From: Candidatus Rifleibacteriota bacterium
Lineage (GTDB): Bacteria > Vulcanimicrobiota > Xenobia > Xenobiales > Xenobiaceae
Length of the DNA: 64,000 nt
Direction: 5' to 3'
Assembly (NCBI GenBank): GCA_900772775.1
Contig: CAAGRW010000134.1
Coordinates: 6,866 to 70,865, forward strand
The notes beneath the pieces are model-generated. The model was not told where the DNA came from. It saw only the letters and a program-made list of their open reading frames with translations, and made no database searches. Made by a program: the position numbers and the translations under genes. Every line of letters starts with the position of its first letter. Position 1 is the first letter of the stretch. Positions 6,649 through 27,555 of the stretch are shown piece by piece.

Positions 6649-6718
6649 AGTTGTATGTGCTTGGTGAAAGAAAGTCGGGCCGCAGACATGCGTTTATGCC
6701 TGGGCCGACAAGTCTAAA

Positions 6719-8823: not shown

Positions 8824-8859
8824 TTCATTTTTTTTGCCCCCCTTGTAAGGAGGTTTGCT

Positions 8860-9573
8860 ATGTTATTAAAACTCACACGTAGAAAAATTTTCAGCTTTTT
8901 AGCTTTACTTTTAATTGTTGGTATCTTTTGTCCTGAGCAAGCTTGGGCTGCTAAAGCCAAAGTCTCTCGCGGTAAAGTTAGCAAAAATGGTGATGCCGTT
9001 ACTTACAATTTAAAATATACGGCCGTTTCTAATTGCAATACTCGCTTCAAGACTAGTCTTATCAATGCTGATGGCTACGTTTTAGCTAGATGGGACGATA
9101 TTGATGTAGCTAAAGGCAAATCTCACAATGAGCCGCAAAGGATGACCAATGTGAGCAAATTGCCTCCTAAAGGCGATATTTTTATTGTAGTAAAAGCTCA
9201 GCCTGCTGCTGGTGGCAGCGAAGGTGAATTTGGTAGTTGGAAATTTGCTTTTAATCGCTCAGGCAAACCCGCTATTTACTGCACTTCCGTCAAGCGAGCC
9301 AATGACAATGGTGAAACTGTTCAGAAGTTCAAATTCCGCTTTGAGGGCGCTTATCCCAAGCATAGTAAAATACGCATAGAAATTTATAATTCTGATGGCA
9401 CTAAGTTAGTTTCGAAAAATCGTACGGCTGGCAAATTTAAAGGCAACTACACTCTCAAGTGGAATGGCTACCCCGATAAAGGTGGTGTGATGTGCAAAAA
9501 CGGCAAGTACATCGTAAAATACTGGATTGAAAATTCGAAGCCTAAGCAAAAAGAAGTCAACTTGAAGTTTTAG
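8860..9573 (+). CDS. Secreted hypothetical protein (signal peptide)
   Basis: Strong RBS AAGGAGG upstream of the ATG. Signal peptide LALLLIVGIFCPEQAWAA. Confidence 0.65.
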   Translation: MLLKLTRRKIFSFLALLLIVGIFCPEQAWAAKAKVSRGKVSKNGDAVTYNLKYTAVSNCNTRFKTSLINADGYVLARWDDIDVAKGKSHNEPQRMTNVSKLPPKGDIFIVVKAQPAAGGSEGEFGSWKFAFNRSGKPAIYCTSVKRANDNGETVQKFKFRFEGAYPKHSKIRIEIYNSDGTKLVSKNRTAGKFKGNYTLKWNGYPDKGGVMCKNGKYIVKYWIENSKPKQKEVNLKF

Positions 9574-9616
9574 TTTAGCGCAGTTTTGATGATTGATAGT
9601 TAAGGAGCTGATATTT

Positions 9617-10462
9617 ATGAATTATAAAGGTACTGTTTGTGCTTTAGCTTTAGTGGCTCTTTTTAGCGTCGGTTGTACAGCTAAAAATGGTAATCAAACT
9701 GCCCCGCAAGCTCAGCCTGTTGCCGCTCCATCTAGTGCGACTGCCGAAACTACAAGCGCTCAGTCTACTGCGGAAATTGCGCAAAATACCGCAACTGCTC
9801 AAGTTGGCGCAGCCGAAGTCAACCCTAATTTTAAGGGCGTCGGTTCTTATGCTAGAGAAAATAGCAGTCAATACAACAACGGCAATTTAGTTATTACAGA
9901 CTTTAAGGAAGGCTTAAAGATCTTCGAATTTAACATCCTTAGCGGCAATGAAGCTACCGATTCAGCTACTACTTATCGTCTGGCCGGCATCTTTAATGTA
10001 GATGCTGGTAAAACTGGCGTAGGCGAATTTGACAGCATTGTGGCTGGTTATGATGGCAAAATAAAATTTAAGCTCAGCGACGACGGCAAAATGATTAACG
10101 TCACTGCCGAAGGAGAAAAAAATCAGGTTTACGTGGGCAGCTACAGCTATACTCACTCTGATTTTGATATTAGCTTAGGCTTAGTAAAAGCAGTACTGGA
10201 AGAATTGCCAGGCGCAGTTACTGGTTTAACCAAAGAAGCTGGCAAATATACTATAAAATTGCTCGATAATGGCGAGCCTTTAGCTGGCGAATATTATGAA
10301 GCTGAAGCTGTCAACAAGCAAGGCCAAGTGATCGGCGCTTACGTTATTTCCAAAGATTTGCAATTGGTTTTGCGTACTGATATTGGTGCTTTAACAGCTA
10401 TTCACGGCCAGCTTACTCCCGAAGTTGAAGCTAAAATTGCTGAAGCTTTGCCTAAAGGCTAA
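9617..10462 (+). CDS. Lipoprotein, hypothetical
   Basis: RBS AAGGAG 8 nt upstream of the ATG at 9617. The ORF-track start at 9593 is an upstream extension. Lipobox-like ALFSVGC, then an Ala/Thr/Gln-rich linker. Confidence 0.65.
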   Translation: MNYKGTVCALALVALFSVGCTAKNGNQTAPQAQPVAAPSSATAETTSAQSTAEIAQNTATAQVGAAEVNPNFKGVGSYARENSSQYNNGNLVITDFKEGLKIFEFNILSGNEATDSATTYRLAGIFNVDAGKTGVGEFDSIVAGYDGKIKFKLSDDGKMINVTAEGEKNQVYVGSYSYTHSDFDISLGLVKAVLEELPGAVTGLTKEAGKYTIKLLDNGEPLAGEYYEAEAVNKQGQVIGAYVISKDLQLVLRTDIGALTAIHGQLTPEVEAKIAEALPKG

Positions 10463-14370: not shown

Positions 14371-15240
14371 TTAGCATGCCAAAATGGCATCATTGGCTTG
14401 TAAAGTGCGCTTAGCCTTCCATTCTTTGGAAACCTTTGTTTTCAATTCGAAAGTCTCCAAATCGTCAGGCACAAAAAGGTGGCCGCTAAAATACGGCTTA
14501 CCTTCTTCAGTATATAAGCTCTTTCTTTGCTTTATGTTTCTATCTTCAGTGTGATAAATTATTAAATTTTTTACCTGAAGACTTTGAGCCAATTGGCAAG
14601 CCTCTTTTACTGTAGAATGATGTTTTTGATGAGGCTTAAAAATATCGGCTTGGCTATCTAAGCAAAAAGCTTCATGCAAGAGCCATTGGCTGCCTTGAGC
14701 GTACTTTCTGGTGCTTTCATTAAAAGGCTCGTCGCCGCAGCAAGTCAATTTTTCGCCATTGCCTAAATCCATAGAAAAGCCAAATTGTTTGGCTTTAGTA
14801 GACAAAATATCAAAAAATACTGTTTTGCAGCCTAAAATATTGATTTCTTGACCGTCTTTTACTTCCACTAAGTGCAAGCGCTCGTCTATATATTTTGTCT
14901 CTTTGGGTGTAAAAAGCTGCTCAGCCAAAAGGCGCAGACATTTTATAACTTCGTCGTGGCCGTAAATAGTGGCTTCGCCTTCATACTGGCCGCGAGCCAT
15001 ACCTTGGCAAATAAAGCGAATCATCCAGACAATACCTAAAATATGATCCACATGTTTGTGGGTCACAAAAATAGTGCGCAAATCTTGCCATTTTAAATTG
15101 GCTTGCTTCAATTGGCGGAAAAGCCCATTGCCTCCGCCGCCGTCTACCAAAAAGTTGCCTTGTTCGTTGCTAAGCACAAAGCAAGTATTATAACATTCTG
15201 TTACGCCGGCATTGCCGGTACCGAGAATAGTTAATTTCAT
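14371..15240 (-). CDS. MBL-fold metallo-hydrolase (RNase Z / beta-lactamase-like)
   Basis: THKHVDHILG (HxHxDH). The true start is probably the ATG at 15240 (MKLTILGTGNAGV...). The ORF-track extension to 15339 would overlap prfB. Confidence 0.75.
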   Translation of the reverse strand: MKLTILGTGNAGVTECYNTCFVLSNEQGNFLVDGGGGNGLFRQLKQANLKWQDLRTIFVTHKHVDHILGIVWMIRFICQGMARGQYEGEATIYGHDEVIKCLRLLAEQLFTPKETKYIDERLHLVEVKDGQEINILGCKTVFFDILSTKAKQFGFSMDLGNGEKLTCCGDEPFNESTRKYAQGSQWLLHEAFCLDSQADIFKPHQKHHSTVKEACQLAQSLQVKNLIIYHTEDRNIKQRKSLYTEEGKPYFSGHLFVPDDLETFELKTKVSKEWKAKRTLQANDAILAC

Positions 15241-15265
15241 AATCTTTTTCCTAAAAAACTGTAGC

Positions 15266-16394
15266 TTAGACGACGTCGCTAGTTTGCGGCTCGCGGCCCA
15301 AGCGGGCTCGAGCTTGCAACCAACTGCGCATAAAGCCATTGATGTCGCCTTCCAGCACTGCGCCTACGTTGGCATTTTCAAAGCCGGTACGTCTATCTTT
15401 AACCATAGTGTAGGGTTGCATAACGTAGTTGCGGATTTGGTTGGCCCAGGCCGCCTCGCGATTTTCGCCCTTTACATTATCTAAAGTGTCTTGGCGTTGC
15501 TCGCGTTTAAGCTCTAAAAGTTTGGCTTTAAGCATGCGCATAGCCGTCTCTTTATTGGAATGTTGGGAGCGCTCGTTCTGGCAAGCGGCCACTGTGCCGG
15601 TAGGAATGTGAGTAATGCGTACCGCCGATTCGGTCTTGTTGACATGCTGCCCGCCTGCGCCTTGGGAGCGATAGGTATCTATTTTTAAATCTTCGGGGCG
15701 CAGCTCAATATTGAGCTCTTCAGCTAGCTCCGGCACTACTTCTACTTTAGCAAAAGAAGTGTGGCGGCGGTGAGCAGCGTCGTAAGGAGAAATGCGCACT
15801 AAACGGTGCACGCCGTGCTCGGAACTGAGCATGCCGAAGGGATAGAAGCCTTCTATAATGAGGCTGGCCGAATGGATGCCGTCTTCTTCGGCAGGCGAAT
15901 ACTCTACTAAACTTACTTTGTAGCCTTCACTTTCGGCCCAGCGCATATACATGCGCAAGAGCATTTCTGTCCAGTCTTGGGCGTCTACTCCGCCGGCTCC
16001 GGCATGAAGAGTAACAATAGCGGCCGCTTTATCGTAAGGGCCGTTCAGTAAAGAAATAGTTTCGGCTCGCTCTAAACGGTGAGTAAGCTCGTCATAATAG
16101 CGCTGGGCTTCGTCTATTTCTTCTTGATTGTCGGGCGTGCCCAACTCGGCGGCCACTTCGGCTTCTTCTAGCGCAGAATTGAGTTCGTGCCACTGTTGAG
16201 CTATCGTTTTGTATTGAGCCAGCTCTTGGGTGAGGCGTTGGACGGCCTCGTTATCTTCCCACACTTGGCCAGAGCCAAATTGGGCTTCTATTTCCTGAAT
16301 TTTGCGTTCGATTGTTTCCAGGTCAAAGATAGTCGCGCATGCGTTCGACGCGGGCGCGGGCTTCGCTTAAAGGCTCGGCAAATTGGGAGAGCAT
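15266..16394 (-). CDS. prfB: Peptide chain release factor 2, expressed through a programmed +1 frameshift
   Basis: ORF0 (minus strand, from the ATG at 16394) reads MLSQFAEPLSEARARVERMRDYL and then TGA, within the canonical CTT TGA C shift site (plus coordinates 16322..16328). The +1 frame continues DLETIERKIQEIEAQFGSGQVWEDNE... into the 332-aa ORF. That ORF contains the SPYDAAHRRHTSFA (SPF-type motif variant) and GGQHVN (GGQ) motifs. Confidence 0.9.
16322..16328 (-). other. RF2 autoregulatory +1 frameshift site (CUU UGA C)
   Basis: Plus-strand GTCAAAG is the reverse complement of CTTTGAC. It sits 23 codons after the ORF0 start. Confidence 0.85.
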
Positions 16395-16498: not shown

Positions 16499-19090
16499 TT
16501 AGCGCTCTTCGGGATAGTGGCACTTCTTCCACTTTTTACCGCTGCCGCACCAACAAGGATCGTTGCGTCCCAATTTGGCTCCGGTGCGCTTAATGGGCTC
16601 GACGGGCATTTCGCTGTCGCGGTTGGTGGCCGTTTCGTGCATAGTCTCTTTTTGCTCAATCTGGTCGGGAGTTTGCACTTCCACACGGAAGAGATAATGC
16701 AAAGTATCGTCGCGTAAACGGCGTTTCAAGCCATCGAACTCTTCAGCAGCTTCGCGAATAAATTCAACTTGAGGATCTTTTTGACCATAACCGCGCAAAT
16801 GGATACCTTCGCGCAATAATTCGATATTGCTCAAGTGCTCAATCCACTTTTCGTCGGTGACGCGCAATAAAGTGAAACGCTCTAAGTCGGACATAAGCTG
16901 ATCGCCCAAAACTTCGATCTTTTTGTCGTAAACTTGGCGCAACCAACCGACGATAGTTTCTTTAATTTCGGCAGGCAATTTGCCACCTAAGTCGGCCTTG
17001 CTTACACCTTCGGGAAGCACTAATTGATCGTGCAAAGCTACCATCAAACCGTCGAAATCCCAAGTTTCCGGCGGAGCTTGCTCGTGCATATGCATATCGA
17101 CCAGATCGCTAACTGCGTCTTCAATGAAGCTGTAAATAGTCTCGCGCAAATCTTTGCCTTCCAAGATCTTGTCGCGGTCGGCATAGATAACGCGGCGCTG
17201 TTCGTTCATAGTATCGTCGTACTTGAGAACGTTTTTACGAATCTCGAAGTGATGGCTCTCTACCTTCATTTGGGCATTTTCGATACCGCGAGAGATCAGA
17301 GGATTCTCGATAACTTCATCTTCTAAGCCCAAAGTATCCATCAAGTTGCGGATTCTGTCGCTGGCGAAGAGGCGCATAAGCTCGTCGTCTAAAGCGACAT
17401 AGAAGCGGGAAGCACCAGGATCGCCCTGACGGCCGGCACGACCGCGCAACTGGTTGTCAATACGGCGAGATTCGTGGCGCTCGGTACCTAAAATATAGAG
17501 GCCGCCAGCTTCACGCACTTTCTTTTCTTCTTCGGGATCGGCAGGATCGCCGCCCAACTTAATGTCAACGCCTCGACCGGCCATATTGGTGGCGATAGTG
17601 ACAGCACCTAAACGTCCGGCTTGAGCGATAATGTGAGCTTCTTTTTCGTGATATTTGGCGTTAAGTACGTTGTGCTTAATGCCCATTTTGGTAAGAAGCT
17701 GGCTGAGCTCTTCCGATTTTTCGATAGAGCGAGTGCCTACCAAAATAGGTTGGCCCTTGGCATGGCGCTCGGCAATATCGGCACAGACGGCCTTAAATTT
17801 ATATTTTTCGTTTTTGTAAACTTGGTCGTGCAAGTCGATACGAGCCACTTTTACGTTGGTAGGAATGACCACTACGTCCAAATCGTAAATTTCGCGGAAT
17901 TCGCGCTCTTCGGTTAAAGCTGTACCGGTCATACCGGCCAACTTGTGGTAGAGCTTGAAGTAGTTCTGGAAAGTGATAGTAGCCAAAGTTTGGTCTTCTT
18001 GGCGGACTTTGACGTCTTCTTTGGCTTCGATAGCTTGGTGTAAGCCGTCGGAATAACGGCGACCGAACATTAAACGGCCGGTAAATTCGTCGACAATAAC
18101 GATTTCGCCATTTTTAACTACATACTCAATATCGTTGCGGTAGCATTCTTTGGCACGCAGAGCGTTATCTATAAAGTGGGCCGTCTCCATGTTGTCGGGA
18201 TCGAACAAGTTGCGCAAGCCTAAAAGTTGCTCAACTTTGGCCACGCCTTCTTCGGTTAAAGGAGCGGTTTTCGATTTCTCTTCCACTGTGTAGTGAACGT
18301 CTTTTTTGAGCTCGCGAGCTACTTGAGCGTAGCGGCCGTACATGTTGGTTGAGCCGGTACCGCGACCGGAAATAATTAACGGTGTGCGGGCTTCGTCAAT
18401 TAAAATGGAGTCGACTTCGTCTACAATAGCAAAGTTGAGCTCGCGTTGGACGCGCTGGTCTAAATCCATGACCATATTGTCGCGCAAATAATCGAAACCG
18501 TATTCATTATTAGTGCCGTAAGTAATATCGGCTTCGTAGGCTTGGCGGCGAGGTACGGGACGCAAGTGATTGTTGCTATCATCGCCAGTTTCAACTTCGG
18601 GATCGTATAAGTAGGCGGTATCGTGATTGATAATACCGACAGATAAGCCCAAGAAATGATAAATGGGAGCCATCCAGCGGCCGTCGCGTTTGGCCAAGTA
18701 GTCGTTTACAGTAACGACATGGACGCCGCGTCCAGTTAAAGCGTTGAGGTAAACTGGGCTGGTAGCTACCAAAGTTTTACCTTCACCGGTTTTCATCTCG
18801 GCAATACGTCCCTGATGGAGCACGACGCCGCCGATCATTTGTACATCGTAATGGCGCAAACCTAAAGTGCGTTTGGAAGCTTCGCGCACGGCGGCAAAAG
18901 CTTCTGGCAAAATATCGTCTAAAGTTTCTTTGCCTTGTAAACGCTGGCGGAAACTGTCTGTAAGAGCGCGCAGCTCTTCGTCAGAACGACTTTTCATGCT
19001 CTCTTCAAAGTCGTTGATCTTCTTGACGACCTTGCGGATTTTCCTAATTTCCCGCTCGTTGGGGTCGAAAAGCCATTCAATGAATCCCAT
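16499..19090 (-). CDS. secA: Preprotein translocase ATPase SecA
   Basis: 863 aa. Conserved ...MKTGEGKTLVATSPVYLNALTGRGVHVVTVNDYLAKRD... and ...LRGRAGRQGDPGASRFY..., plus a C-terminal zinc finger GRNDPCWCGSGKKWKKCH. Confidence 0.95.
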   Translation of the reverse strand: MGFIEWLFDPNEREIRKIRKVVKKINDFEESMKSRSDEELRALTDSFRQRLQGKETLDDILPEAFAAVREASKRTLGLRHYDVQMIGGVVLHQGRIAEMKTGEGKTLVATSPVYLNALTGRGVHVVTVNDYLAKRDGRWMAPIYHFLGLSVGIINHDTAYLYDPEVETGDDSNNHLRPVPRRQAYEADITYGTNNEYGFDYLRDNMVMDLDQRVQRELNFAIVDEVDSILIDEARTPLIISGRGTGSTNMYGRYAQVARELKKDVHYTVEEKSKTAPLTEEGVAKVEQLLGLRNLFDPDNMETAHFIDNALRAKECYRNDIEYVVKNGEIVIVDEFTGRLMFGRRYSDGLHQAIEAKEDVKVRQEDQTLATITFQNYFKLYHKLAGMTGTALTEEREFREIYDLDVVVIPTNVKVARIDLHDQVYKNEKYKFKAVCADIAERHAKGQPILVGTRSIEKSEELSQLLTKMGIKHNVLNAKYHEKEAHIIAQAGRLGAVTIATNMAGRGVDIKLGGDPADPEEEKKVREAGGLYILGTERHESRRIDNQLRGRAGRQGDPGASRFYVALDDELMRLFASDRIRNLMDTLGLEDEVIENPLISRGIENAQMKVESHHFEIRKNVLKYDDTMNEQRRVIYADRDKILEGKDLRETIYSFIEDAVSDLVDMHMHEQAPPETWDFDGLMVALHDQLVLPEGVSKADLGGKLPAEIKETIVGWLRQVYDKKIEVLGDQLMSDLERFTLLRVTDEKWIEHLSNIELLREGIHLRGYGQKDPQVEFIREAAEEFDGLKRRLRDDTLHYLFRVEVQTPDQIEQKETMHETATNRDSEMPVEPIKRTGAKLGRNDPCWCGSGKKWKKCHYPEER

Positions 19091-19334
19091 GTTATCGCAC
19101 TCCGATATTTGTAAACAAACTAAATCAAATTTTTCTTATAAAAAATTGAACAAACTGTCTTTTGCAGGCTGTTTTGTGGGGAAAACGGACGAGCACAAGG
19201 CGGCGGATGAGAAAGCGCATTCCCAAAAGTTGCCCAACGACAGCCTAGGTGGTTTCTATTATGAACGCTTGCTTCCTTCGCTTTTCCTATTTGTTTTCTA
19301 TCTGCCTTGTATATGCGTTGTGTTTGTACTCGAG

Positions 19335-20612
19335 CTAGTCTTGACGGTTACATTCGAGCACGTCTTTATGGAAGACGGTCTTCCACTGAATGTAAGTAAT
19401 CATAGCGCCGCCGACGATAAAGCAAAGAATTAGTAAAGTTTCCATAGCGGCCATACCCCAGCGCTCAGTAAAAACGCCTTGCAAAGCGGCAATAATACTC
19501 ATGGCTCCCCAAGCGGTAAAGGTATTGAGTGAGCCAAAAGCCGTCTTGTCACCTACACTAGGAAACATATCGGGCACACTAATTACTAAGGCCATAGAAT
19601 AAATACGATCTAAAGTCATAAAAATAGCAATGGCCGCTACGGCGGCGGTTAAATTTAATTTGCCATAGATAAAAATAGGCAGCAATACCAATGAAGAAAT
19701 AATGCTTACCAAAAATGTGGAGCGATGGCCAAAGCGCTTCATTATGCTGTTGGTAAAGAAATTGATAAGACAATCGGCTAAACCGATAATCAGAAGGGCT
19801 AAGCTAACTTCTTTAAGATCGAGATGATAATGGTAGGGAAACCAAAGGCCGCACAGAGAGTAAAAGCCAAAGTAGGCCATACGGTTGATGGTTGAGCCTA
19901 TATAGTAGGTGACGGCATGGGGCACGGCCAAAGCCTTTTGGTAAGGCTCGACAATGGCTTTACAAATGGAGAAAAGGCTCTTAAAAGTTAAATTTTGGCA
20001 TAAAGGAGAAGCTTTTTCTTCTTTATCTGGCTGGGGCGCATTGGGTTGGCTCGCTTCGTCTTTGTGTTCGGTTGGATAAAACCAAGCCAGAGCTAAACCG
20101 CTGGCCGCTGTAAGTAAAGCAATAATTAGGATCGGTACACGCCAATTGAAGTCGACCGTAAGCCAACCGGCCAGCGGTACGCCTATAGCTGTGGCTAAGG
20201 GGCGAGCTGACATTAAAACGGCGATCATAGCCGGGAAATAAGCTTTGGAGACGCCGTGGAAAGTTAGGCTCCACATAATGGAAGCTACAAAGCCTGCTCC
20301 CAAACCAGACAGAGCTCGCCAGACTAAGCCCAGCTCGAAGGAAGAAGAAAAAGCGAAGGCTGCTTGGGTGAGCGCCAAAAGAAGCGTACACCAAAAGAGC
20401 AATTTGCCGGGCTTAAACGCCGAAACTAGCGAAGGGCCGAACACCAGACCAGCTACAGTGCCGCCAGTACAAAACGAGATGAATAGTAAAGCAGTGTGGG
20501 CTGGAATGCTGAAGCTTTGGCCAATCACGTCGGCCATGGGAGAGATGGCGTTGTCGATTGAATTAAAAGCAAAAATTAAAATAAAAGCTAAAACGACAAC
20601 GACTCTCTCCAT
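19335..20612 (-). CDS. MFS-family transporter (12 predicted TM)
   Basis: 425 aa, hydrophobic throughout, with an MFS-like pattern and a central cytoplasmic loop. Last gene of the rSAM/ATP-grasp operon. Confidence 0.75.
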   Translation of the reverse strand: MERVVVVLAFILIFAFNSIDNAISPMADVIGQSFSIPAHTALLFISFCTGGTVAGLVFGPSLVSAFKPGKLLFWCTLLLALTQAAFAFSSSFELGLVWRALSGLGAGFVASIMWSLTFHGVSKAYFPAMIAVLMSARPLATAIGVPLAGWLTVDFNWRVPILIIALLTAASGLALAWFYPTEHKDEASQPNAPQPDKEEKASPLCQNLTFKSLFSICKAIVEPYQKALAVPHAVTYYIGSTINRMAYFGFYSLCGLWFPYHYHLDLKEVSLALLIIGLADCLINFFTNSIMKRFGHRSTFLVSIISSLVLLPIFIYGKLNLTAAVAAIAIFMTLDRIYSMALVISVPDMFPSVGDKTAFGSLNTFTAWGAMSIIAALQGVFTERWGMAAMETLLILCFIVGGAMITYIQWKTVFHKDVLECNRQD

Positions 20613-20637
20613 TGTTTCGAACCTCTAGTCTGCGAAA

Positions 20638-21960
20638 TTAGTGCAGCTCTTTCAAGGCTCGAGCGGCCAGGGCCAGAGCAGACTCCACATATTCTTCACT
20701 TTCGCCTAAAGCGGCCAAAGCTACGGTGCCATGAGCCGGCGGCGAAGTAATTATCAGTCCGCGTCTGCCCTTGGTTTTGTGCAAAAGGAGCGGTTCCCCT
20801 TCATAGGTGAGCGAGCCCAGCTTATCCAGCACTTCGTCGGTGGTAGTAGCTGCGGTAGGTAACGACTCTCGAGAACTTATATACAGGCTTGACCAATGGG
20901 GGCCAAAGAAGTGTTTGGCTATATCAACTACATAACCGAAACCGTTGTGACGGAAGTTGCATTCCAAAAAGATCGGCTCAAGTTGGCCGTGCTCGTTTCT
21001 AGTTAAGCCCCAGTCCATATTTAAATAGCCTCGGGCTCCAGTTAAGTATACTGAACGACCTAAGCGGTTTATATCGGCCAATAGCTTTGACATAGCTTCA
21101 TCGGCTTCCGAGCCGGTTAGGTTGGCCGGATAGTCAAAACCGCACCAACCTCCGTGAGTGTCAAACACTTGGCTGTCTAAGCCTACAAAATGGCAACCTT
21201 GATCGTCTATTAAGCTGAGCGAGCCGCAAACCGTTTCAAAATCTATAAATTGCTCAACTAACACTCTGCTGCCGCCGTACCATTGGGGCAAAGCCGTTTT
21301 CAATTCGTCGGCAGTGCCAGCTAAATTGCCAGCGCCGCCAGCCGATTGAATTTTGCGCAACATAAGTTTGGGCTGTTTTTGCTCATTTTGGGCTGAGAGC
21401 TGGGCCGAAACGGTGTCGATAAGCTGTTTCAGGCTGGAACTATTATCGGCACACATTCCCGGCGGCACTTGGCAACCCGCACCTATAGCCAAAGCTTTGC
21501 AAAAGTCTTTGCTATTTAAGTTGTCGATTAAGCCTAAAGCCAAGTATTTTTGGGCGGTGCCTTTTACGGGCAACTCCAATTGTTGGCCCAGCTCAAAAAT
21601 AGGCTCGGTCTGAATGTAGGGCTCGACAAACCAATCTTCACCTTGGCAGCGCTCTTTTATGGCTTGTAAAGCGGCGGCGTCGGCTTTAATAGCGTCGGTC
21701 AAGAGGCAACTTGCAGCCATTTTGACATTGATAACTGTTTGCTCGGGTGTTCCCAAATCGAGTAAAGAGCAAATATAGCTCTGGAAAGAAGGCTCGATTT
21801 GAGTAGGCGTTACCAACACATCACCTGGATTCAGTGAGCAAAGAAAGCGGGGGAAAACTTTCAAAGTTTTATGCTGAAAAAATTCACTAAAGCCGCCTTC
21901 AGAGGTTGGGATCACATTTTCGGCGTTGGGCAAAAATAGTTTAGGCATAGAACTTGCCAT
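20638..21960 (-). CDS. ATP-grasp-like ligase (hypothetical)
   Basis: 440 aa. Segments resemble ATP-grasp motifs: LMLRKIQSAGGAGNL (K-x-GSGG loop), VLVEQFID...GSLSL, and YLNMDWGLTRNEHGQLEPIFLECNFRHNG (the E-x-N Mg/ATP site). It overlaps the upstream rSAM gene by 20 nt. Confidence 0.5.
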   Translation of the reverse strand: MASSMPKLFLPNAENVIPTSEGGFSEFFQHKTLKVFPRFLCSLNPGDVLVTPTQIEPSFQSYICSLLDLGTPEQTVINVKMAASCLLTDAIKADAAALQAIKERCQGEDWFVEPYIQTEPIFELGQQLELPVKGTAQKYLALGLIDNLNSKDFCKALAIGAGCQVPPGMCADNSSSLKQLIDTVSAQLSAQNEQKQPKLMLRKIQSAGGAGNLAGTADELKTALPQWYGGSRVLVEQFIDFETVCGSLSLIDDQGCHFVGLDSQVFDTHGGWCGFDYPANLTGSEADEAMSKLLADINRLGRSVYLTGARGYLNMDWGLTRNEHGQLEPIFLECNFRHNGFGYVVDIAKHFFGPHWSSLYISSRESLPTAATTTDEVLDKLGSLTYEGEPLLLHKTKGRRGLIITSPPAHGTVALAALGESEEYVESALALAARALKELH

Positions 21961-22927
21961 CGCAGAGCATATTGCGAGGATATTTTTGCAAATTTAAGCC
22001 GCGAATGCTTTTTAAGGAGCAAAGCACAAATTGGAAATTGCGCTGCATAAGAGCTGTGGCCACTTTATCGACAGAAGCTAAAGCTACTTCGTTCTTTTGT
22101 GAAAAAGACACTGTGTCGTCTTGGCCAGGCAAAATTTTGCGACTAGCGTCAAAATTGTAGCGAGACAAGATCTTCTCCAATTCGGCTGGATCTAAAGCTT
22201 GGCGTATAGCATCCATAATGCCGGGCGAGAAGAGCAAGTACGACCACATGACGCGCTTTAAGTGGTGCTGCTCCAATAAATCGAGGAAAGGCAGCAATGC
22301 TTCGTCGCGGTCGTCAATTTGCGCAATAAAAGGATCGAGGTGAATTGTTGTCAGGCAACCGGCTTGGCAAATTTCTTCGGCTGCTTCTAAACGTGGTTGC
22401 AAAGGCTTTAAGTTTTTGACAAACTTGGCCAGCGGATTGGGATTGAGCATAACTGAAGGACTGAAGGCGGCGTTATAGGAGAACTTTTCGCGCCATTTGC
22501 TCATTAAATCGATAATTTCACGGCTGGGCAGTCCTTTAGTGGTAATAATTACTCGATTGACTTTGGAGGCGCTGAGAATTTTTAAAATTTCTAAACTCAG
22601 GCCGCTTTCTACAAACTTAGGCGTAAAAATATCGGTGTAGCGAGAAAGCTTTAATATGTTAATGTTGCCGGAGTTTACTTCTTCGTGGATGCGACGCAGC
22701 AATTCTTCTTCGGGATAGAGAAGGGCCGGATCGTCAAATTTGGCATTCAGTTCGTTTAAAGTATTGTTGACAGCTACGCGAGAGCGAGCGTAGCAATAAG
22801 GGCAATTGTGTTGGCAACCTACCCAAGGTTCCAAATAGTGATATTTTCCATACCAGCATGTTCCTAAAGAACCGGGAGCAAATAAAGTTACTTTTTCTTC
22901 CATTCGTAGATGTTCTCGTTTATTCAA
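21941..22927 (-). CDS. Radical SAM protein (SPL/COG1533-like)
   Basis: CQHNCPYCYA (CxxxCxxC) cluster at about residue 38. A 328-aa TIM-barrel-sized protein. Confidence 0.7.
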   Translation of the reverse strand: MNKREHLRMEEKVTLFAPGSLGTCWYGKYHYLEPWVGCQHNCPYCYARSRVAVNNTLNELNAKFDDPALLYPEEELLRRIHEEVNSGNINILKLSRYTDIFTPKFVESGLSLEILKILSASKVNRVIITTKGLPSREIIDLMSKWREKFSYNAAFSPSVMLNPNPLAKFVKNLKPLQPRLEAAEEICQAGCLTTIHLDPFIAQIDDRDEALLPFLDLLEQHHLKRVMWSYLLFSPGIMDAIRQALDPAELEKILSRYNFDASRKILPGQDDTVSFSQKNEVALASVDKVATALMQRNFQFVLCSLKSIRGLNLQKYPRNMLCDGKFYA

Positions 22928-23067
22928 AAATTATTTGCCAAAAAAGCAAAAACAGATCGAACCCAGAGGGAAAATACAGCATATAAGCGGCCTTTTTGAC
23001 AAAAAAACCAGCCACTCAAGCAATAAATAATAATGCTATTCCTGCTATTGTCTCACACAAATAATAA

Positions 23068-23095
23068 AGCCGCAAGCAAAAAAGTGCGGCTTCAG
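23068..23095 (-). terminator. Putative terminator downstream of the methyltransferase gene (minus strand)
   Basis: GCCGCA...TGCGGC hairpin. On the minus strand it is followed by TTTATTATTTGTGTG. Confidence 0.4.
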
Positions 23096-23125
23096 GTAGG
23101 GTGATAGGTTAAATACAGAGCGTCT

Positions 23126-23788
23126 TTATCTTTTTTGTAGCATTATACCGCCGTAAAAGGAACATTTAGGCATAAGGCCGATCAATTTGAAGCCGACTTC
23201 CTCTAGGCAGCTTTGCCAATATTTTACTCCGCAGGGAAATTCGTTGAGAAAGCTATTCATGACGTCGTGCTCTTTGGTTTTCCAGGCCTCGCCGTAATAT
23301 TGGGCGGCTTGTTTTTTCAATTTTTCCCAATTTTCTTGCAATTGCGGTCGCTCAAACTCAAAAAAGATACCGTCTTCTATATATAACAAGGCGCCGCTTT
23401 TAAAGGCCGGGCCGATATTTTGGGCAAAAATAGCTTTCTCGGCGTCGGTTAAGTGGTGCAAAGCTTTGCGGGAAAAGCCTTTACTAAATGTATTCGGCTG
23501 CGGCTTGTAAGCCGTAAAAGAGCTGCAAATAAGTTCTGTATTGGGGTAATGGTTTAAATTTTGGCTTGTCAGCTCAATTTGCAACTTGGAAATATCCAGC
23601 CCGTACACTTTTTGAGCTATGGGTGCAGCCAAACTTAAAAATTCGCCGTTGCCGCAACCGAAGTCTATTAAAGTGTCGTCGCTATTAATTTTAAGTAAGT
23701 TTAAACAGTGCTTAAAATATTCGGCTTCTGTGGCGTAGTTGCGGTTATAATAGGCTACATATTCGTCGTTTAACCAATTCTCTTCCAT
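23126..23788 (-). CDS. Class I SAM-dependent methyltransferase
   Basis: Motif I LIDFGCGNGEF and motif II-like VYGLDIS. 220 aa. Confidence 0.8.
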   Translation of the reverse strand: MEENWLNDEYVAYYNRNYATEAEYFKHCLNLLKINSDDTLIDFGCGNGEFLSLAAPIAQKVYGLDISKLQIELTSQNLNHYPNTELICSSFTAYKPQPNTFSKGFSRKALHHLTDAEKAIFAQNIGPAFKSGALLYIEDGIFFEFERPQLQENWEKLKKQAAQYYGEAWKTKEHDVMNSFLNEFPCGVKYWQSCLEEVGFKLIGLMPKCSFYGGIMLQKR

Positions 23789-23800
23789 AATAGCGACTCC

Positions 23801-24550
23801 TTAGTTCTTCCCCGGGAAGGGAGTGTAAGGCACTTTGGTGCGTTGAGGATGATTCTTTAGCCAATAGAGAGTGAGAGCCCACAGGTGCTTGAGATAATTT
23901 ACTATTTCACCGCCGCCGAATTTACTTTTGCCAGCTAAACGATCTTCAAAAATAAAAGGCACCTCAGTGACAGTTTTATAATGGCCTTTAATTAAAACTT
24001 CCAAATTGATCTTAAAGCCAATTGGATTTAACTCAGCGCCTTCAATTACTTGACGGCGCATAAGCATATAGCCGCTGGTAACGTCGTTGACTGGACAAAT
24101 CGGCCAGCCCATAGCTACGGCAGTTAGAGAAGTTATGCGTCTGTACCAAGGCCAATTGCGCACACCGCCGCCTTTTATGTAGCGACTGCCCATAGCAATG
24201 TCGGCGCCGCCATTAGTTATGGAGTAGACCATATCGGGCAATATGTTGGGATCGTGGGATAAATCGGCGTCGATTACTCCCAAAATTTCGCCCTCTCCGG
24301 CTTGCCAACCGGCAATAACGGCAGAAGAGAGGCCGAGCTTGCCGCTGCGTTTTACTACTTTTATGCGTCCTTGGTATTTTTCGCTAAGCTTTTCAGCTAA
24401 AGCGGCGGTGCCGTCGGGAGAATTATCGTCCACTACAACCAATTCTCCGCTAATAGAAGCTTTATCTAGGGCCGCAAATACTTTTTCCGCTAAAACTGGC
24501 AGGGTCTCTTTTTCGTTATAAGTGGGAACAATTAGTGAAAGCTGGATCAT
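23801..24550 (-). CDS. GT2 glycosyltransferase, polyprenol-phosphate sugar transferase (Dpm1/ArnC-like)
   Basis: LSLIVPTYNEKETL ... VVVDDNSPDGT ... IDADLSHDP (DxD/DAD). Start at the ATG at 24550; a TTG at 24556 also lies in frame. The upstream gene's stop codon lies 2 nt before it (TGACTATG). Confidence 0.8.
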   Translation of the reverse strand: MIQLSLIVPTYNEKETLPVLAEKVFAALDKASISGELVVVDDNSPDGTAALAEKLSEKYQGRIKVVKRSGKLGLSSAVIAGWQAGEGEILGVIDADLSHDPNILPDMVYSITNGGADIAMGSRYIKGGGVRNWPWYRRITSLTAVAMGWPICPVNDVTSGYMLMRRQVIEGAELNPIGFKINLEVLIKGHYKTVTEVPFIFEDRLAGKSKFGGGEIVNYLKHLWALTLYWLKNHPQRTKVPYTPFPGKN

Positions 24551-24552
24551 AG

Positions 24553-25017
24553 TCAAAAACGTATAACCTTTTCTGATTTAAGGCAAATTTCCAAAATAAG
24601 GTGGGCGGAAACCAAATGGCCGACTTTTATTTCGTCGCATAAGGACAATTTTTGAGCCGAATGCTCGCAAATACGCAGAGAACAGCCGCGCTTTTGCAAA
24701 AATTGCAAAATTGGCAACAATTCAGAAGTTTCGGTACATAGGCGCACCGCTTCGTGCATAAAAATTATAAATCTGGGCAATTCTTGTAAGTTGTTCAGCT
24801 CGGCAATAATGTTGTGCAAAAGTTCTTCGCCCAAAGCGTCGGGAGCTCCGATGTAGGGTTGGCAAAAAATAATGGTGCCGCGAAACTTGTGAGAATCCGA
24901 GCCTGCTAACGGGGAATATTCGGCAAAGGGGCGGCCGCTGCGCAAAGCGCCCAAATAGTATTGAAGATCTTTTTCTTCAAAACACTCAGGAGTAGTAAGA
25001 CTCAATTTTTCCTTCAA
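24553..25017 (-). CDS. Hypothetical protein, first gene of the GT2 operon
   Basis: 154 aa, Cys-containing (CQPYIG, RGCSLRICEH), tightly coupled to the GT2 gene. No confident family assignment. Confidence 0.45.
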   Translation of the reverse strand: MKEKLSLTTPECFEEKDLQYYLGALRSGRPFAEYSPLAGSDSHKFRGTIIFCQPYIGAPDALGEELLHNIIAELNNLQELPRFIIFMHEAVRLCTETSELLPILQFLQKRGCSLRICEHSAQKLSLCDEIKVGHLVSAHLILEICLKSEKVIRF

Positions 25018-25250: not shown

Positions 25251-26645
25251 ATGAATTCATTTACGAGCGCGGAAATCAAAAACAGATTAAAGCGCTTGAT
25301 TGGCGGCTTCCGTTGGCGTGCTGTGGTTATGGTGGCCGTGATCTACCTATTCTCCTTCAGTATTGTGGCCTCTTCCGTGATCTACTTAGCCCGCACTAGA
25401 GGTGAAGGCGAACTTTCCGCCGCTTTAGTGCAAAGCGTAAAAGCTTTTGGCTATACGAGCACACGCGATTTTGACACTTCAGTTACGCAAGCCGAATTTT
25501 TAGCTGCCGATTCTTGCCTTGACGCCTACAGAAACAGCACCAATTTAAAGCAAAGTTTTGATTCTCTTTCCGAAGCCGACAAAAAAGCATTAAGCAGTGA
25601 CATGCTTACCGCTTTAGCCAACATCTCCAAAGATGCGGTAGCTATTGTCGATACCGAAGGCAATGTTTGCTTATTTACTGAGCGCACTGCTCCTAAAGAA
25701 AAAGGTGGCGGCACTCCTTCTGAAACCGACTTTGGCAAAGCGGAAACCCATGGCAAAAAAGGTGAATCTGGCGATAAAGCCGACTCGCTCAAAAGCCTTG
25801 ACAAGCTTGACGCTGATTTCCTCGATTCAGTATTTAAATTCGGGGAAGCCAGCAAAGGGTGCTTGCGCTTTTCTACTTCATCTTCTGCGCCTCTTTACAA
25901 CGTAGTGGCTGTAGCTCTCAATAAGGGGGCTAAAGACGAAAAAAAGAAAAACGGGGCTTTGCTTTTAGCTGAGCGTATAGACGACAAAGCGCTGGTCAAG
26001 TGGAGCCAAAATATGCCTCCCGGCCTTTTGGTGTTGGTTGCTCAAGGTAAAGTCGTTTCTGCTTACGACAAGCGTTCCGATTCGCGTCCCACTCCGACTA
26101 TCGCTGCCGAATTAGACAAAATGCTCAAATATTGGAGCCCGCGTCAAAATCTTGACGAGTCAGGCAAAGGCAGCTCCCAATTTAAGATCAGTAGTTCCGA
26201 CGTCAAGTTGGCTGGCAAGACTTGGAAAGCGGCTGTGGCCGAGCTGGATAGTAGCAAAAAACGTGAAGCGGCAGCTTATGTAGTCTTTTTGGCCGATCCT
26301 TTGAATCTGGAACAAGAAATAAGGCAGCATATTTGGGTTCTGGGTATTTGCTTGGCCGTCACTCTGGTTATGCAAAGCGTTTTAGTCTATTTCTTAAGTC
26401 CGGTTTGTTTGCGTTTTGCCCGAGCTCATTTGCAAGCTGGTTCGGCCCATTTAGTTTCTTTAGAAGTAAAATCGCGCCAGACACAAATTTTAGCCGCGCA
26501 AAATGCTGCCTCTTCAGAATCGGCTCCCCCTGTCGCGTCTACCAATCCGACGGCTTCATCTGTATCGGCTGCTGGAACTGAAGCTGCGACCGCGCCTACT
26601 GCGCCTCCTACGCCGTCGATTCCCGCTGACCAAACTCAAAAATAA
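25251..26645 (+). CDS. Membrane protein with two TM segments flanking an extracytoplasmic domain of about 330 aa and an Ala/Thr/Pro-rich C-terminal tail; no recognisable output domain
   Basis: N-terminal TM RAVVMVAVIYLFSFSIVASSVIYL, a second TM HIWVLGICLAVTLVMQSVLVYFL, and a C-terminus ...TEAATAPTAPPTPSIPADQTQK. Confidence 0.55.
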   Translation: MNSFTSAEIKNRLKRLIGGFRWRAVVMVAVIYLFSFSIVASSVIYLARTRGEGELSAALVQSVKAFGYTSTRDFDTSVTQAEFLAADSCLDAYRNSTNLKQSFDSLSEADKKALSSDMLTALANISKDAVAIVDTEGNVCLFTERTAPKEKGGGTPSETDFGKAETHGKKGESGDKADSLKSLDKLDADFLDSVFKFGEASKGCLRFSTSSSAPLYNVVAVALNKGAKDEKKKNGALLLAERIDDKALVKWSQNMPPGLLVLVAQGKVVSAYDKRSDSRPTPTIAAELDKMLKYWSPRQNLDESGKGSSQFKISSSDVKLAGKTWKAAVAELDSSKKREAAAYVVFLADPLNLEQEIRQHIWVLGICLAVTLVMQSVLVYFLSPVCLRFARAHLQAGSAHLVSLEVKSRQTQILAAQNAASSESAPPVASTNPTASSVSAAGTEAATAPTAPPTPSIPADQTQK

Positions 26646-26664
26646 AATTTGTTTAATTGCAACA

Positions 26665-26701
26665 GCCGGAAAAGGTCAAAGCTTGGCTCCGGCCTTTTTT
26701 C
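26665..26701 (+). terminator. Rho-independent terminator
   Basis: GCCGGA...TCCGGC stem followed by CTTTTTTC. Confidence 0.6.
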
Positions 26702-26727
26702 TTGAAATTAAAGAAAGCTGCTCCCCC

Positions 26728-27555
26728 ATGAAAAATCCTAAAGTGCGTCTCGATTTGCTTTTAGTGGAGCGAGCCTTGGCTCCCACTCGAGAAAAAGCCA
26801 AATCTCTTTTAATGACCGGTCAAATTTTCGTCAATGGTGTTCGCCGTGACAAAGCCGGTTTTTTAGTCGATGAAGAATCGGAAATAACTATTCAAGGACG
26901 AGGCATTCCTTTCTCCAGCCGCGGCGGCTTTAAGTTAGAAAAAGCTTTAAATACTTTTAATATCTCTCCCGAAGGCAAGGTTGTGGCCGATTTGGGAGCT
27001 TCTACCGGCGGTTTTACCGATTGCTTGCTTAAAGGTGGAGCGGCCAAAGTTTACGCTGTAGATGTAGGCAAGGGCCTTTTGGACTACAAGCTCACCCAAG
27101 ACAGTCGCGTGGTAGTTATGGATCGCACCAATGCTCGCTATTTAACTGCTGATATGTTTGCCGAGCCTTTAGACTTAGTGACTATGGACTTGTCTTTTAT
27201 CTCTTTGGAGCTTATTTTGCCGGCTGCTAAAGAACTTTTGGCTGCCAATGGTCAGATCGTTTGTCTAATTAAGCCTCAATTTGAAGCTGGCCCCAAAAAT
27301 ATTAAAGGCGGAGTAGTGCGCCGCCCTGAAGTGCACGAACAAGTTTTGACTAAGTTTATCGCTTTTTGTCAAAGTATTGGCTTGAGAGTTGAGCAACTTA
27401 CTTTTTCGCCTATTAAAGGGCCGGCTGGTAATATCGAATTTTTGGCTTGTTTAAGTAGTGCTGATAGAGTAAAAAGCGACTGTGAGTCTGAAATTGGCGA
27501 TCAAGCTTGGGATGTAAAAGAACTGGTTTCTCAAGCTTGGCAAGAAGCCAAGTAG
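26728..27555 (+). CDS. tlyA: TlyA-family rRNA 2'-O-methyltransferase (hemolysin A homologue)
   Basis: S4 domain VRLDLLLVERALAPTREKAKSLLMTGQIFVNGVRRDKAG, then an FtsJ-like domain VADLGASTGGFTDCLLKGGAAKVYAVDVG. True start is the ATG at 26728; the ORF track extends upstream into the previous gene. Confidence 0.85.
   Translation: MKNPKVRLDLLLVERALAPTREKAKSLLMTGQIFVNGVRRDKAGFLVDEESEITIQGRGIPFSSRGGFKLEKALNTFNISPEGKVVADLGASTGGFTDCLLKGGAAKVYAVDVGKGLLDYKLTQDSRVVVMDRTNARYLTADMFAEPLDLVTMDLSFISLELILPAAKELLAANGQIVCLIKPQFEAGPKNIKGGVVRRPEVHEQVLTKFIAFCQSIGLRVEQLTFSPIKGPAGNIEFLACLSSADRVKSDCESEIGDQAWDVKELVSQAWQEAK

Follow-up and report, generated by a model that had tools for sequence, protein, structure and literature searches.

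A radical SAM, ATP-grasp ligase, methyltransferase and MFS cassette that may build and export a small amide-linked metabolite in Xenobia and other bacteria

The ATP-grasp ligases PGM1 (pheganomycin peptide ligase), 8ynd (a Streptomyces "ATP-grasp peptide ligase") and BesA (L-propargylglycine--L-glutamate ligase) are actinomycete enzymes that form amide bonds at the expense of ATP in small-molecule pathways. Ligases of this type join the carboxylate of an amidino or amino acid to the amine of a peptide or amino acid. Bacilysin-type clusters (bacD/bacE), which are responsible for a dipeptide antimetabolite, combine warhead-forming enzymes with an ATP-grasp ligase and an adjacent MFS self-resistance exporter. 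This logic is common to the cassette described here, but the ligase of the bacilysin type is an L-amino-acid ligase while that of the cassette is PGM1-type, and the cassette's tailoring enzymes, a radical SAM enzyme and a methyltransferase, are unlike those of the bacilysin type. The characterized enzymes with the fold of spore photoproduct lyase (SPL) are SPL and phage M6 gp53, a radical SAM isomerase of N-alpha-glycinylthymidine in DNA, both acting on DNA (PMC8989533). The ligase of the cassette always has an SPL-fold radical SAM enzyme as neighbour, whereas no such pairing has been reported for PGM1 or BesA. No description of the cassette was found in the searchable literature.

The locus is part of a 64,000-nucleotide stretch of a Xenobia genome, hereafter the window, and comprises six open reading frames (ORFs) between positions 19335 and 25017, all on the minus strand and at the coordinates given by an earlier note on this DNA, whose domain assignments are all confirmed. 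Homologues of each ORF (23-100% identity) were found in dozens of genomes, and the six are therefore real genes and not chance ORFs. The features are:

19335..20612, minus strand: MFS transporter, 425 aa (PF07690, E 1e-26); core cassette gene 4
20638..21948, minus strand: PGM1/BesA-type ATP-grasp amide ligase (predicted), 436 aa (PF18604); core cassette gene 3
21941..22903, minus strand: SPL-fold radical SAM enzyme, 320 aa (PF04055); core cassette gene 2
23055..23094, minus strand: terminator-like hairpin by RNA folding, 10-bp stem and U-rich tail
23126..23788, minus strand: class I SAM methyltransferase, 220 aa (Methyltransf_25/31/11/23); core cassette gene 1
23801..24550, minus strand: GT2 protein, polyprenyl-phosphate mannose synthase-like, 249 aa (PF00535); Xenobia-specific neighbour
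24553..25017, minus strand: Cys-containing DsrE-like protein, 150-154 aa; Xenobia-specific neighbour

For two genes the start supported by homologues lies inside the longest ORF, namely MPKLF at 21948 for the ligase (longest ORF 20638-21960, 440 aa) and MEEKV at 22903 for the radical SAM enzyme (longest ORF 21941-22927). The 20-nt overlap described earlier between them holds for the longest ORFs, while the homologue-supported starts reduce it to 8 nt, as in most relatives. The longest GT2 ORF spans 23801-24556 (251 residues), and with its ATG start at 24550 the 2-nt gap to the Cys-containing protein is correct.

The methyltransferase, radical SAM, ATP-grasp and MFS genes occur together in 52 of 65 species-level loci, and where the set is incomplete (13 loci), nine times the contig ends there. 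These loci, syntenic in many relatives, belong to Xenobia/Eremiobacterota, Elusimicrobiota, Riflebacteria/Ozemobacteraceae, Wallbacteria and Oligoflexia, and their flanks vary (FTHFS, OMP, response regulators, TrkH, ankyrin, NTP transferase, M16 peptidase, HEAT repeats). The earlier note had placed the methyltransferase with the Cys-containing protein and GT2, apart from the radical SAM, ligase and MFS genes, a division that these 52 loci do not support. Linkage of the methyltransferase is kept even when it lies on the opposite strand or at the far end; it is divergent together with the MFS gene on the other strand in eight loci, and the order in L075 is radical SAM-ligase-MFS-methyltransferase. 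About half of the loci have radical SAM and ligase genes that share 8 nt; the MFS gene adjoins the ligase gene in 51 of the 65, with an overlap that is often 4 nt. It appears from this gene content that the functional unit conserved in several phyla of uncultivated bacteria is the set of four, with the GT2 pair as a lineage-specific neighbour. In one population with locus L084 the ligase is broken into two ORFs, indicating that the cassette is dispensable, which counts against the pathway proposed below.

The Cys-containing protein and GT2 adjoin the cassette in only eight of the 65 loci, all of them in Xenobia. The assignment of the latter as a GT2 polyprenol-phosphate sugar transferase is well founded (PF00535, E 2.6e-30, 106 bits), as its residues 4-229 match residues 23-247 of Pyrococcus furiosus DPMS (5mlz, E 3.8e-62), covering the full catalytic domain. 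Archaeal DPMS has 374 aa and a C-terminal transmembrane domain, whereas the GT2 of 251 aa has no transmembrane or membrane anchor domain and, unlike DPMS, is translationally coupled to the DsrE-like protein; anchor-less Ppm1 enzymes do exist. The Cys-containing protein has no Pfam match. Its similarity to TIGR03527 (YedF; E 3.8e-14, 53 bits, cut-off 110) is confined to the C-terminal half of the profile (positions 85-193), and classification as a YedF selenium-metabolism protein was rejected, the score being below the cut-off and the N-terminal TusA-like domain unmatched. Its relatives match PF02635 (DsrE) at E 0.003-0.05, and only nine homologues were present among 5.8 billion proteins, all beside the same GT2.

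All six genes could in principle form one Xenobia-specific pathway, in which sulfur from a DsrE-like carrier or sugar from the GT2 would enter the same product, for example a thio- or glyco-conjugate. The block is contiguous in Xenobia at 49-100% ligase identity, has different flanks in L004 and, beside a transposase, was inverted as a whole (L081-L086); since it stays intact through both changes, the GT2 pair may be functionally tied to the cassette. Moreover, in the window 12 nt separate GT2 from the methyltransferase, and three extra invariant cysteines of the radical SAM enzyme could form an auxiliary cluster as in sulfur insertion. However, none of the 44 four-gene loci outside Xenobia has the pair, the GT2-methyltransferase gap grows to 240-470 nt in L004 and L081, and GT2, with its strong mannose synthase match, is conserved far above the cassette genes in a housekeeping-like manner (80% versus 49-67%; the L004 copy is 80% identical where the ligase is 49% identical). 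A six-gene pathway is thus quite unlikely in our view, and the term glycoconjugate used earlier for the locus finds no support for the cassette. GT2 probably belongs outside the cassette pathway, and the DsrE-like protein and GT2 most likely form a separate, Xenobia-confined module serving envelope glycosylation.

A terminator-like hairpin lies directly 3' of the methyltransferase gene in the window; its 10-bp stem on AAGCCGC/GCGGCTT is followed by a U-rich tail, and a simple scan did not pick it up because its loop is 10 nt. The hairpin is kept in L017-L019 and partly in L022; relatives have methyltransferase-to-radical SAM gaps of 4-50 nt (median 21). Only in this genus would it separate the cassette into two transcription units, and here the methyltransferase now seems to be transcribed with the DsrE-like/GT2 module. 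Such a hairpin between the methyltransferase and its partners accounts for the two operons described earlier. A riboswitch was looked for and not found.

The 440-aa protein had been proposed to be ATP-grasp-like, and the AF2 model (pLDDT 91.8) has that fold, the Foldseek matches being 8ynd (E 1.4e-26), PGM1 (3wvq, 1e-23) and BesA (8yi6, 1.7e-21), with TM scores of 0.70-0.79. In common with these three, the ligase carries an N-terminal PF18604 pre-ATP-grasp domain (residues 37-129, 54.6 bits against a cut-off of 27.5, E 1.7e-14). Its invariant residues are K203, the glycine-rich loop AGGAGN (207-212), D316 and E333-x-N335-x-R337; all of these align with the solved enzymes, among them the glycine-rich loop and the Mg/ATP-binding E-x-N-x-R shared by the three. 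Identity to them is only 18-20%, and they are actinomycete proteins whereas the window ligase belongs to a small subfamily from Gram-negative candidate phyla (79 representative clusters at E<1e-30 among 1.84 billion). Assignment to the LAL family (PF02222/ATP-grasp_4 with LAL_C2) was rejected, as the window ligase matches PF18604 only. Fold and motif suggest an active enzyme, for which ATP-dependent amide bond formation is predicted.

Given that PGM1 and 8ynd, the closest solved relatives, are both called peptide ligases, a pheganomycin-like hybrid or RiPP has to be considered, in which the ligase would join a modified acid to a ribosomal peptide at its N-terminus, the peptide being encoded remotely or too short to detect, and the radical SAM enzyme and methyltransferase would tailor acid or peptide. 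The pheganomycin cluster also has a radical SAM enzyme and a C-methyltransferase (PMC8939145). Against this, a scan of the gathered loci for ORFs of 15-120 aa around the cassette turned up nothing but shadow ORFs, which lie within genes conserved among close relatives, and no small ORF of at least 15 aa is conserved across phyla near the cassette. The earlier failure to see a precursor-peptide ORF is therefore confirmed, and the suggestion of RiPP-like modification loses ground, as the genes abut or overlap in most loci and leave no room for a small ORF inside the operon (upstream gaps in L037 are zero-length). In addition, there is no leader peptidase, the exporter is of the MFS and not the ABC/peptidase type, and the ligase is only about 20% identical to PGM1. 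We consider a ribosomal peptide product unlikely.

Variants of the cassette touch on dipeptides, and dipeptidases beside some cassettes fit the dipeptide theme of bacilysin-type clusters. A VanX-like D-Ala-D-Ala dipeptidase occupies the methyltransferase position in L071, and an extra gene for an L-amino-acid-ligase-type ATP-grasp protein is seen in L072 and only there. M20 peptidases are found near the cassette in 13 loci; the PRK13983 M20 hydrolase occurs in Elusimicrobiales (L037) and, in the other orientation, near L046, whose cassette groups with the Ozemobacteraceae/Riflebacteria loci, while that of L007 belongs to a different family, YgeY.

The radical SAM enzyme has the CxxxCxxC motif expected by the earlier note (C38xxxC42xxC45; PF04055, 30.3 bits, cut-off 29.5) on an SPL-type partial TIM barrel with a C-terminal extension. 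The term SPL-like is right at the level of fold. Membership of the SPL sequence families was rejected (NCBIfam PA0069, 42 bits against a cut-off of 360; Rv2578c, 26 against 430), no NCBIfam SPL model matched, and the family profile retrieved no PDB sequence at E<0.1. SPL and gp53 are 13-15% identical to it, with no sequence-level match, and whereas they act in DNA, the gene context here is an exporter and a ligase and not DNA metabolism. No cysteine is invariant between positions 45 and 303, where the SPL H-donor Cys would be expected; three others are (C24, C303 and C322), and these could be ligands of an additional Fe-S cluster or metal. Cluster motif and fold are those of a probably active enzyme. 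It counts against the pathway proposed below that this enzyme is without a sequence-level relative of known function and that characterized SPL-fold enzymes use DNA, not free metabolites.

Regarding the methyltransferase, the best PDB matches of its family profile are phosphoethanolamine N-methyltransferases (PMT, E 1e-17), with an alignment spanning only the Rossmann core (residues 25-144). Its invariant residues are DxGCGxG (DFGCGNG in the window), D65, R107, H111 and H112. In an alignment with Plasmodium PMT, SRKALHHL falls on SRDxxLHL, placing R107 and H112 on the PMT arginine and histidine, the latter presumably the catalytic His132. Full-length PMT family membership, including the C-terminal lid and the Tyr19 partner, was rejected, the alignment being limited to the core and no curated model being passed. 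The SAM motif and the PMT-like SRxxxxHL stretch suggest that the enzyme is active, and this one aligned motif, together with core similarity at the 1e-17 level, hints at N-methylation.

The family profile of the methyltransferase also resembles cyclopropane-fatty-acid synthases and gives a weak PrmA match. Taken with the DNA substrates of both characterized SPL-fold enzymes (PMC8989533), these likenesses would fit modification of a macromolecule or lipid, such as a ribosomal protein (RimK/RimO/PrmA-like logic), a nucleic acid or a phospholipid head group, with the MFS protein as lipid flippase. We regard this as very improbable, since the invariant MFS pairing and the PGM1/BesA clade of the ligase indicate soluble small substrates; furthermore, PADLOC gave no defence or DNA-modification match except a generic methyltransferase domain, and no phage or plasmid copies of the cassette were found.

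The MFS protein is most similar to drug/metabolite exporter families, with weak NCBIfam matches to AraJ, the MxcK myxochelin exporter, Cmx/CmrA and Bcr/CflA efflux families. Sequence cannot give the direction of transport, and the protein might import an environmental or host compound for the three enzymes to repair, detoxify or salvage; SPL itself is a repair lyase, and the cassette hosts are host-associated and sediment anaerobes with reduced metabolism. However, the nearest MFS families are efflux pumps, PGM1/BesA-type ligases are biosynthetic, and ATP-consuming amide formation and methylation would be unusual in catabolism. Uptake and conversion are thus rather improbable, and the MFS protein is a putative exporter.

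The reading that we prefer, and to which we give an even chance, is that a self-contained four-gene cassette uses primary metabolites to make a small amide-linked compound, which it then exports, in support of the earlier view of an uncharacterized small-molecule biosynthesis and export locus. The ligase would activate a carboxylate as acyl-phosphate and join it to an amine, its partner being an amino acid or amino-acid-like compound, so that a (pseudo)dipeptide-type conjugate would result. The 5'-deoxyadenosyl radical of the radical SAM enzyme, whose gene appears translationally coupled to that of the ligase, would remove a hydrogen, leading to rearrangement or cross-linking of the amino-acid moiety, for which gp53, isomerizing an amino-acid conjugate, would be the precedent (PMC8989533). 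The PMT-like enzyme would methylate an amine and the MFS protein would send the product out, while the peptidases beside some cassettes (M20 hydrolase, VanX-like dipeptidase) might recycle or detoxify it. The folds, the conserved catalytic motifs and the linkage of the four genes are shown by the data, whereas on our best reading we infer this order of steps, the substrates, export as the direction of transport and, as product, an N-methylated, radical-modified, amide-linked amino-acid-derived metabolite.

More tentatively, and with somewhat more doubt than belief, we suggest that an SPL-fold radical SAM enzyme acts on a free amino-acid conjugate and not on DNA, and that, coupled to a PGM1/BesA-type ligase and an N-methyltransferase, it would define a new metabolite class, that of secreted N-methylated pseudodipeptides. 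If true, members of this class might be antimetabolites or signals, for example, made by uncultivated bacteria of the Elusimicrobiota, the Riflebacteria and the Xenobia of the human gut.

The earlier note had placed six genes between 19335 and 25017 of the window, and all six ORFs were found at those coordinates on the minus strand. Its domain assignments were also borne out by Pfam matches for the genes it had named. The starts of the radical SAM enzyme (rSAM) and of the ligase are those set by homologue alignment:

19335-20612, minus strand: MFS transporter (MFS_1, E 1e-26)
20638-21948, minus strand: ligase (Pre-ATP-grasp domain PF18604, E 1.7e-14)
21941-22903, minus strand: rSAM (Radical_SAM, barely over threshold; motif C38xxxC42xxC45)
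23126-23788, minus strand: methyltransferase (several class I methyltransferase models)
23801-24550, minus strand: GT2 glycosyltransferase (Glycos_transf_2, E 2.6e-30)
24553-25017, minus strand: 154-aa DsrE-like protein (no match in Pfam)

The gene spacings reported earlier are correct for the longest ORFs. By the alignment, however, the ligase begins at MPKLF (21948) and the rSAM at MEEKV (22903), and the two genes then overlap by 8 nt, which is typical of the family, rather than by 20 nt. The rSAM locus is 100% identical to contig CAKUBG010000001.1 of an uncultured gut bacterium from a Hadza metagenome, whose relatives are labeled UBP9 or Candidatus Bruticola (Xenobia, Vulcanimicrobiota/Eremiobacterota). 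A 188-aa ORF on the plus strand (18867-19433) lies antisense to the SecA start and the MFS end. The equivalent stretch in close relatives holds only similar low-complexity shadow ORFs, with one gene caller giving an 85-aa product, and the ORF is probably not a gene. Elsewhere in the window, a metallo-beta-lactamase-fold protein (14371-15339, minus strand) is encoded downstream of the release-factor gene; its relatives carry precomputed matches to PF23023 (Anti-Pycsar Apyc1) and Lactamase_B, and its probable identity is a generic MBL hydrolase.

The search with the rSAM yielded 65 distinct species-level genome loci, on which the six window proteins were run by tblastn. Methyltransferase, rSAM, ligase and MFS were found together in 52 of the 65, and contig ends account for nine of the 13 loci lacking the full set. 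Median identity to the window was 38% for the methyltransferase, 45% for the rSAM, 32% for the ligase and 42% for the MFS. The hosts are labeled Xenobia/UBP9, Elusimicrobiota, Riflebacteria/Ozemobacteraceae, Wallbacteria and Oligoflexia, besides a few other labels that may reflect mis-binning. Different loci have different flanks (FTHFS, outer-membrane proteins, response regulators, TrkH, ankyrin proteins, a nucleotidyltransferase, an M16 peptidase, HEAT-repeat proteins). In eight loci the methyltransferase and the MFS are divergent on the opposite strand, yet still abut the rSAM, and one Oligoflexia locus has the methyltransferase after the MFS. The 8-nt overlap at the rSAM-ligase junction recurs in about half of the loci, and a 4-nt overlap at the ligase-MFS junction is frequent. 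Taken together, the varied flanks, the divergent and reordered loci and the overlapping junctions are strong evidence that the four genes of this cassette, only ~4.4 kb in size and self-contained, function jointly without need of another dedicated partner. Clustering and Pfam/NCBIfam annotation of ~35 neighbors revealed no further universal partner, recurrent neighbors being limited to an M20 hydrolase, a pyruvate-kinase-like barrel and a few dipeptidase/ligase variants.

The earlier note had also split the six genes into two operons. Regarding transcription units this is probably right for this genus, but it does not describe the functional partition, given that the methyltransferase belongs with rSAM, ligase and MFS in relatives. 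In the window, 12 nt lie between GT2 and the start of the methyltransferase, and after the methyltransferase comes a GC-rich hairpin (10 bp; 23055-23094, including a U-rich tail), which is kept in the closest species; 198 nt separate the methyltransferase from the longest rSAM ORF. Elsewhere the median distance is 21 nt, with 30 and 42 nt in the Xenobia relatives L004 and L081. The hairpin was found by reading, folding and comparison with relatives and not by the promoter/terminator scan, whose counts were not above those of shuffled sequence. The two-operon arrangement is a local rewiring.

The ATP-grasp fold of the ligase, proposed earlier for the 440-aa ORF, held up in an AlphaFold2 model built from 15 homologues (mean pLDDT 91.8), in Foldseek searches and at the level of the family profile. 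The first match in PDB was a Streptomyces 'ATP-grasp peptide ligase' (8ynd, E 1.4e-26, TM 0.75-0.79), followed by PGM1 of pheganomycin biosynthesis (E 1e-23) and BesA, the L-propargylglycine--L-glutamate ligase (E 1.7e-21), with PurK and biotin carboxylases lower down (E ~1e-15). The family profile recovers 8ynd, PGM1 and BesA by sequence as well, aligning the invariant LECNFRHNG of the family to their E-x-N-x-R. These top matches and the aligned motif bear out the predicted fold, whose absence would have counted against the earlier reading. The family is small: a word-index search of 5.8 billion proteins gave only 15 homologues, a full HMM scan across 1.84 billion representatives gave 79 clusters at E<1e-30, and an exact-sequence look-up of the window ligase returned no record. 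In one population (L084) the ATP-grasp gene is broken up, apparently by a frameshift or as a pseudogene, leaving one ORF of 264 aa and one of 166 aa, which agrees with an accessory, dispensable function.

Given that PGM1 is a close structural relative, the ligase could instead act as in pheganomycin biosynthesis, on a very short or remotely encoded peptide, and the pheganomycin cluster too contains an rSAM and a C-methyltransferase (PMC8939145). The gene spacing in the cassette and its lack of peptide-export machinery speak against this, and we consider it unlikely. Clustering of small ORFs around all cassettes produced only shadow ORFs and no conserved precursor-peptide gene, in agreement with the earlier remark that no precursor-peptide ORF was apparent.

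The structure of the rSAM was modeled from 39 homologues (pLDDT 92.1). Its nearest solved structure, by a clear margin, is spore photoproduct lyase (SPL; Foldseek E 6e-8), although identity to SPL is just 13-15%. Against PDB sequences the family profile gave no match, single-sequence or profile searches returning only chance-level TYW1 fragments, and in NCBIfam only the PA0069 and Rv2578c families appeared, far below threshold. Apart from the CxxxCxxC motif, C24, C303 and C322 are invariant in the 39 sequences, 13 of which have a fourth cysteine at position 319 (CxxC with C322). This pattern suggests a putative auxiliary Fe-S or metal (e.g., zinc) site. At least 154 close homologues exist. In the source records, proteins of the cassette are called 'radical SAM protein', 'DNA repair photolyase' or simply hypothetical. 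To date the SPL fold has been associated only with DNA repair and one phage DNA-modification enzyme (PMC8989533). The latter, gp53 of phage M6, is the sole characterized SPL-fold enzyme besides SPL and acts as an isomerase on a glycine conjugate, changing its linkage from N to C (PMC8989533), so the fold is able to rearrange amino-acid conjugates.

Concerning the methyltransferase, the best matches of its family profile are phosphoethanolamine N-methyltransferases (PMT; E 1e-17). The invariant SRKALHHL aligns to SRDxxLHL of Plasmodium PMT, and the alignment puts the invariant H112 onto a PMT histidine that we take to be the catalytic His132. At the sequence level this is a hint of amine N-methylation.

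The two remaining genes, for the DsrE-like protein and GT2, adjoin the cassette only in Xenobia (8/65 species loci). GT2 matches the catalytic domain of Pyrococcus dolichol-phosphate mannose synthase (E 3.8e-62) but ends ahead of the membrane domain of that enzyme. Just nine homologues of the DsrE-like protein turned up among 5.8 billion proteins, all within the Xenobia clade; its similarity to YedF is confined to the DsrE-like C-terminal half and stays below threshold. Likewise conserved in this clade only is a divergent gene:

25251-26645, plus strand: 464-aa membrane protein (no Pfam family)

This protein has an N-terminal TM helix, a ~300-aa extracytoplasmic domain, a second TM helix and an Ala/Pro/Thr/Ser-rich tail. 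Its gene is transcribed divergently from the DsrE-like gene, and a response-regulator gene stands between the two in L004 and L081. Its end is overlapped for ~140 nt by the longest ORF (350 aa; 26503-27555, plus strand) of a TlyA-like gene (S4 + FtsJ). Since relatives call a 275-aa product, the true start of the latter is probably ~75 codons downstream.

An attractive though rather unlikely alternative is that all six genes form one Xenobia pathway in which the DsrE-like protein would donate sulfur to an auxiliary-cluster rSAM. The six genes are contiguous in a relative with 49% ligase identity, despite different flanks, and remain so through an inversion between the same SecA and MlaD neighbors, beside a transposase gene; because they stay together in Xenobia, a functional tie between the pair and the cassette is possible. 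In the gut Xenobia species L081-L086 (4564-14068) the inverted block takes in a response regulator and an unknown 403-aa protein besides the six genes, with the same SecA/PrfB and MlaD/TlyA/PTS neighbors as the window and a Transposase_31 gene at its side. However, the six-gene arrangement is limited to one clade. Moreover, in L004 GT2 is conserved at 80% compared with 49-67% for the cassette genes, and GT2 lies 240-470 nt from the methyltransferase in Xenobia relatives (L004, L081). Together with the clear polyprenyl-phosphate mannose synthase identity of GT2, these observations argue that the pair is a housekeeping envelope module and a mere neighbor of the cassette.

The four-gene cassette itself combines three catalytically intact predicted enzymes with an efflux-type MFS and has no further invariable companion, which implies that primary metabolites are turned, in a few steps, into a product that is secreted. 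The ligase would form an amide at the expense of ATP, the SPL-fold rSAM would abstract a hydrogen and bring about a rearrangement or cross-linking, the methyltransferase would methylate an amine and the MFS would export the product. We infer what the substrates and the product are, in which order the steps occur and which way the MFS transports. Import and salvage instead of biosynthesis and export would use the same MFS in the other direction, a reading we regard as quite improbable. Modification of a macromolecule or lipid fits poorly with the constant MFS/PGM1-type context and is very improbable. The overall logic is similar to that of bacilysin-type clusters, in which an ATP-grasp ligase is paired with an MFS exporter. 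Variant loci also point to dipeptide-like chemistry (the first three entries below; the fourth is another recurrent neighbor):

L071, 6198-6968: VanX/DdpX-like D-Ala-D-Ala dipeptidase in the position of the methyltransferase
L072, 286-4516: extra LAL-type (L-amino-acid-ligase) ATP-grasp preceding the pre-ATP-grasp ligase, and downstream another radical SAM gene
L037, 5082-6320: M20 family hydrolase, also by or near the cassette in L036, L051, L026, L011/L025, L035, L047, L046 and L061
L014, 11476-12483: truncated pyruvate-kinase-like barrel of ~330 aa (PF00224, under all pyruvate-kinase cut-offs), also in L045, L046, L049, L061 and L062

No MFS was found in the rest of the available L071 sequence. 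In L036, L037 and L051 the M20 hydrolase directly precedes the methyltransferase; in L026 it lies within ~125 nt, and in L046 and L061 it is on the opposite strand. The cassette genes of L037 are contiguous (6321-10345). In L037 (Elusimicrobiales) and L046 (a MAG of the Ozemobacteraceae/Riflebacteria group), where orientations differ, it exceeds the NCBIfam PRK13983 cut-off of 333 with 550 and 535 bits, respectively. The barrel gene follows the MFS in six loci of the Ozemobacteraceae/Riflebacteria group, overlapping the MFS end by a few nt in L014, L046 and L049; this could be a fifth gene particular to the lineage, and would then hint at a substrate derived from PEP or pyruvate.

Other searches named neither a ligand nor a known system. 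Rfam gave no riboswitch or other RNA family naming a ligand in the window and six diverse loci, PADLOC assigned no defense system, and phage and plasmid collections yielded no close copy, the best matches being fragments of 20-26% identity and Streptomyces PGM1-like genes. Arsinothricin-like (ArsL/ArsM/ArsQ), mycosporine, wybutosine, cyclopropanase (C10P/C10Q, YtkW) and phosphonate pathways were considered and rejected, no defining enzyme of theirs being matched in the cassette.

No description of the cassette was found in the literature searched. Each of its enzymes is from a known superfamily, and tailoring enzymes with an ATP-grasp ligase and an exporter follow a familiar logic; therefore the cassette is not categorically new. 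The point of interest is the conserved coupling of an SPL-fold rSAM to small-molecule machinery, confined to poorly known phyla, human-gut Xenobia among them. If the proposed model is true, this would be the first small-molecule role for the SPL fold, and a compact, transplantable four-gene pathway from phyla with almost no characterized natural products, including Xenobia of Hadza and non-human primate guts; at ~4.4 kb it would be easily tested. If the cassette serves a housekeeping metabolite pathway instead, it would still provide context for ~150 orphan radical SAM proteins now named 'DNA repair photolyase' or 'hypothetical'.
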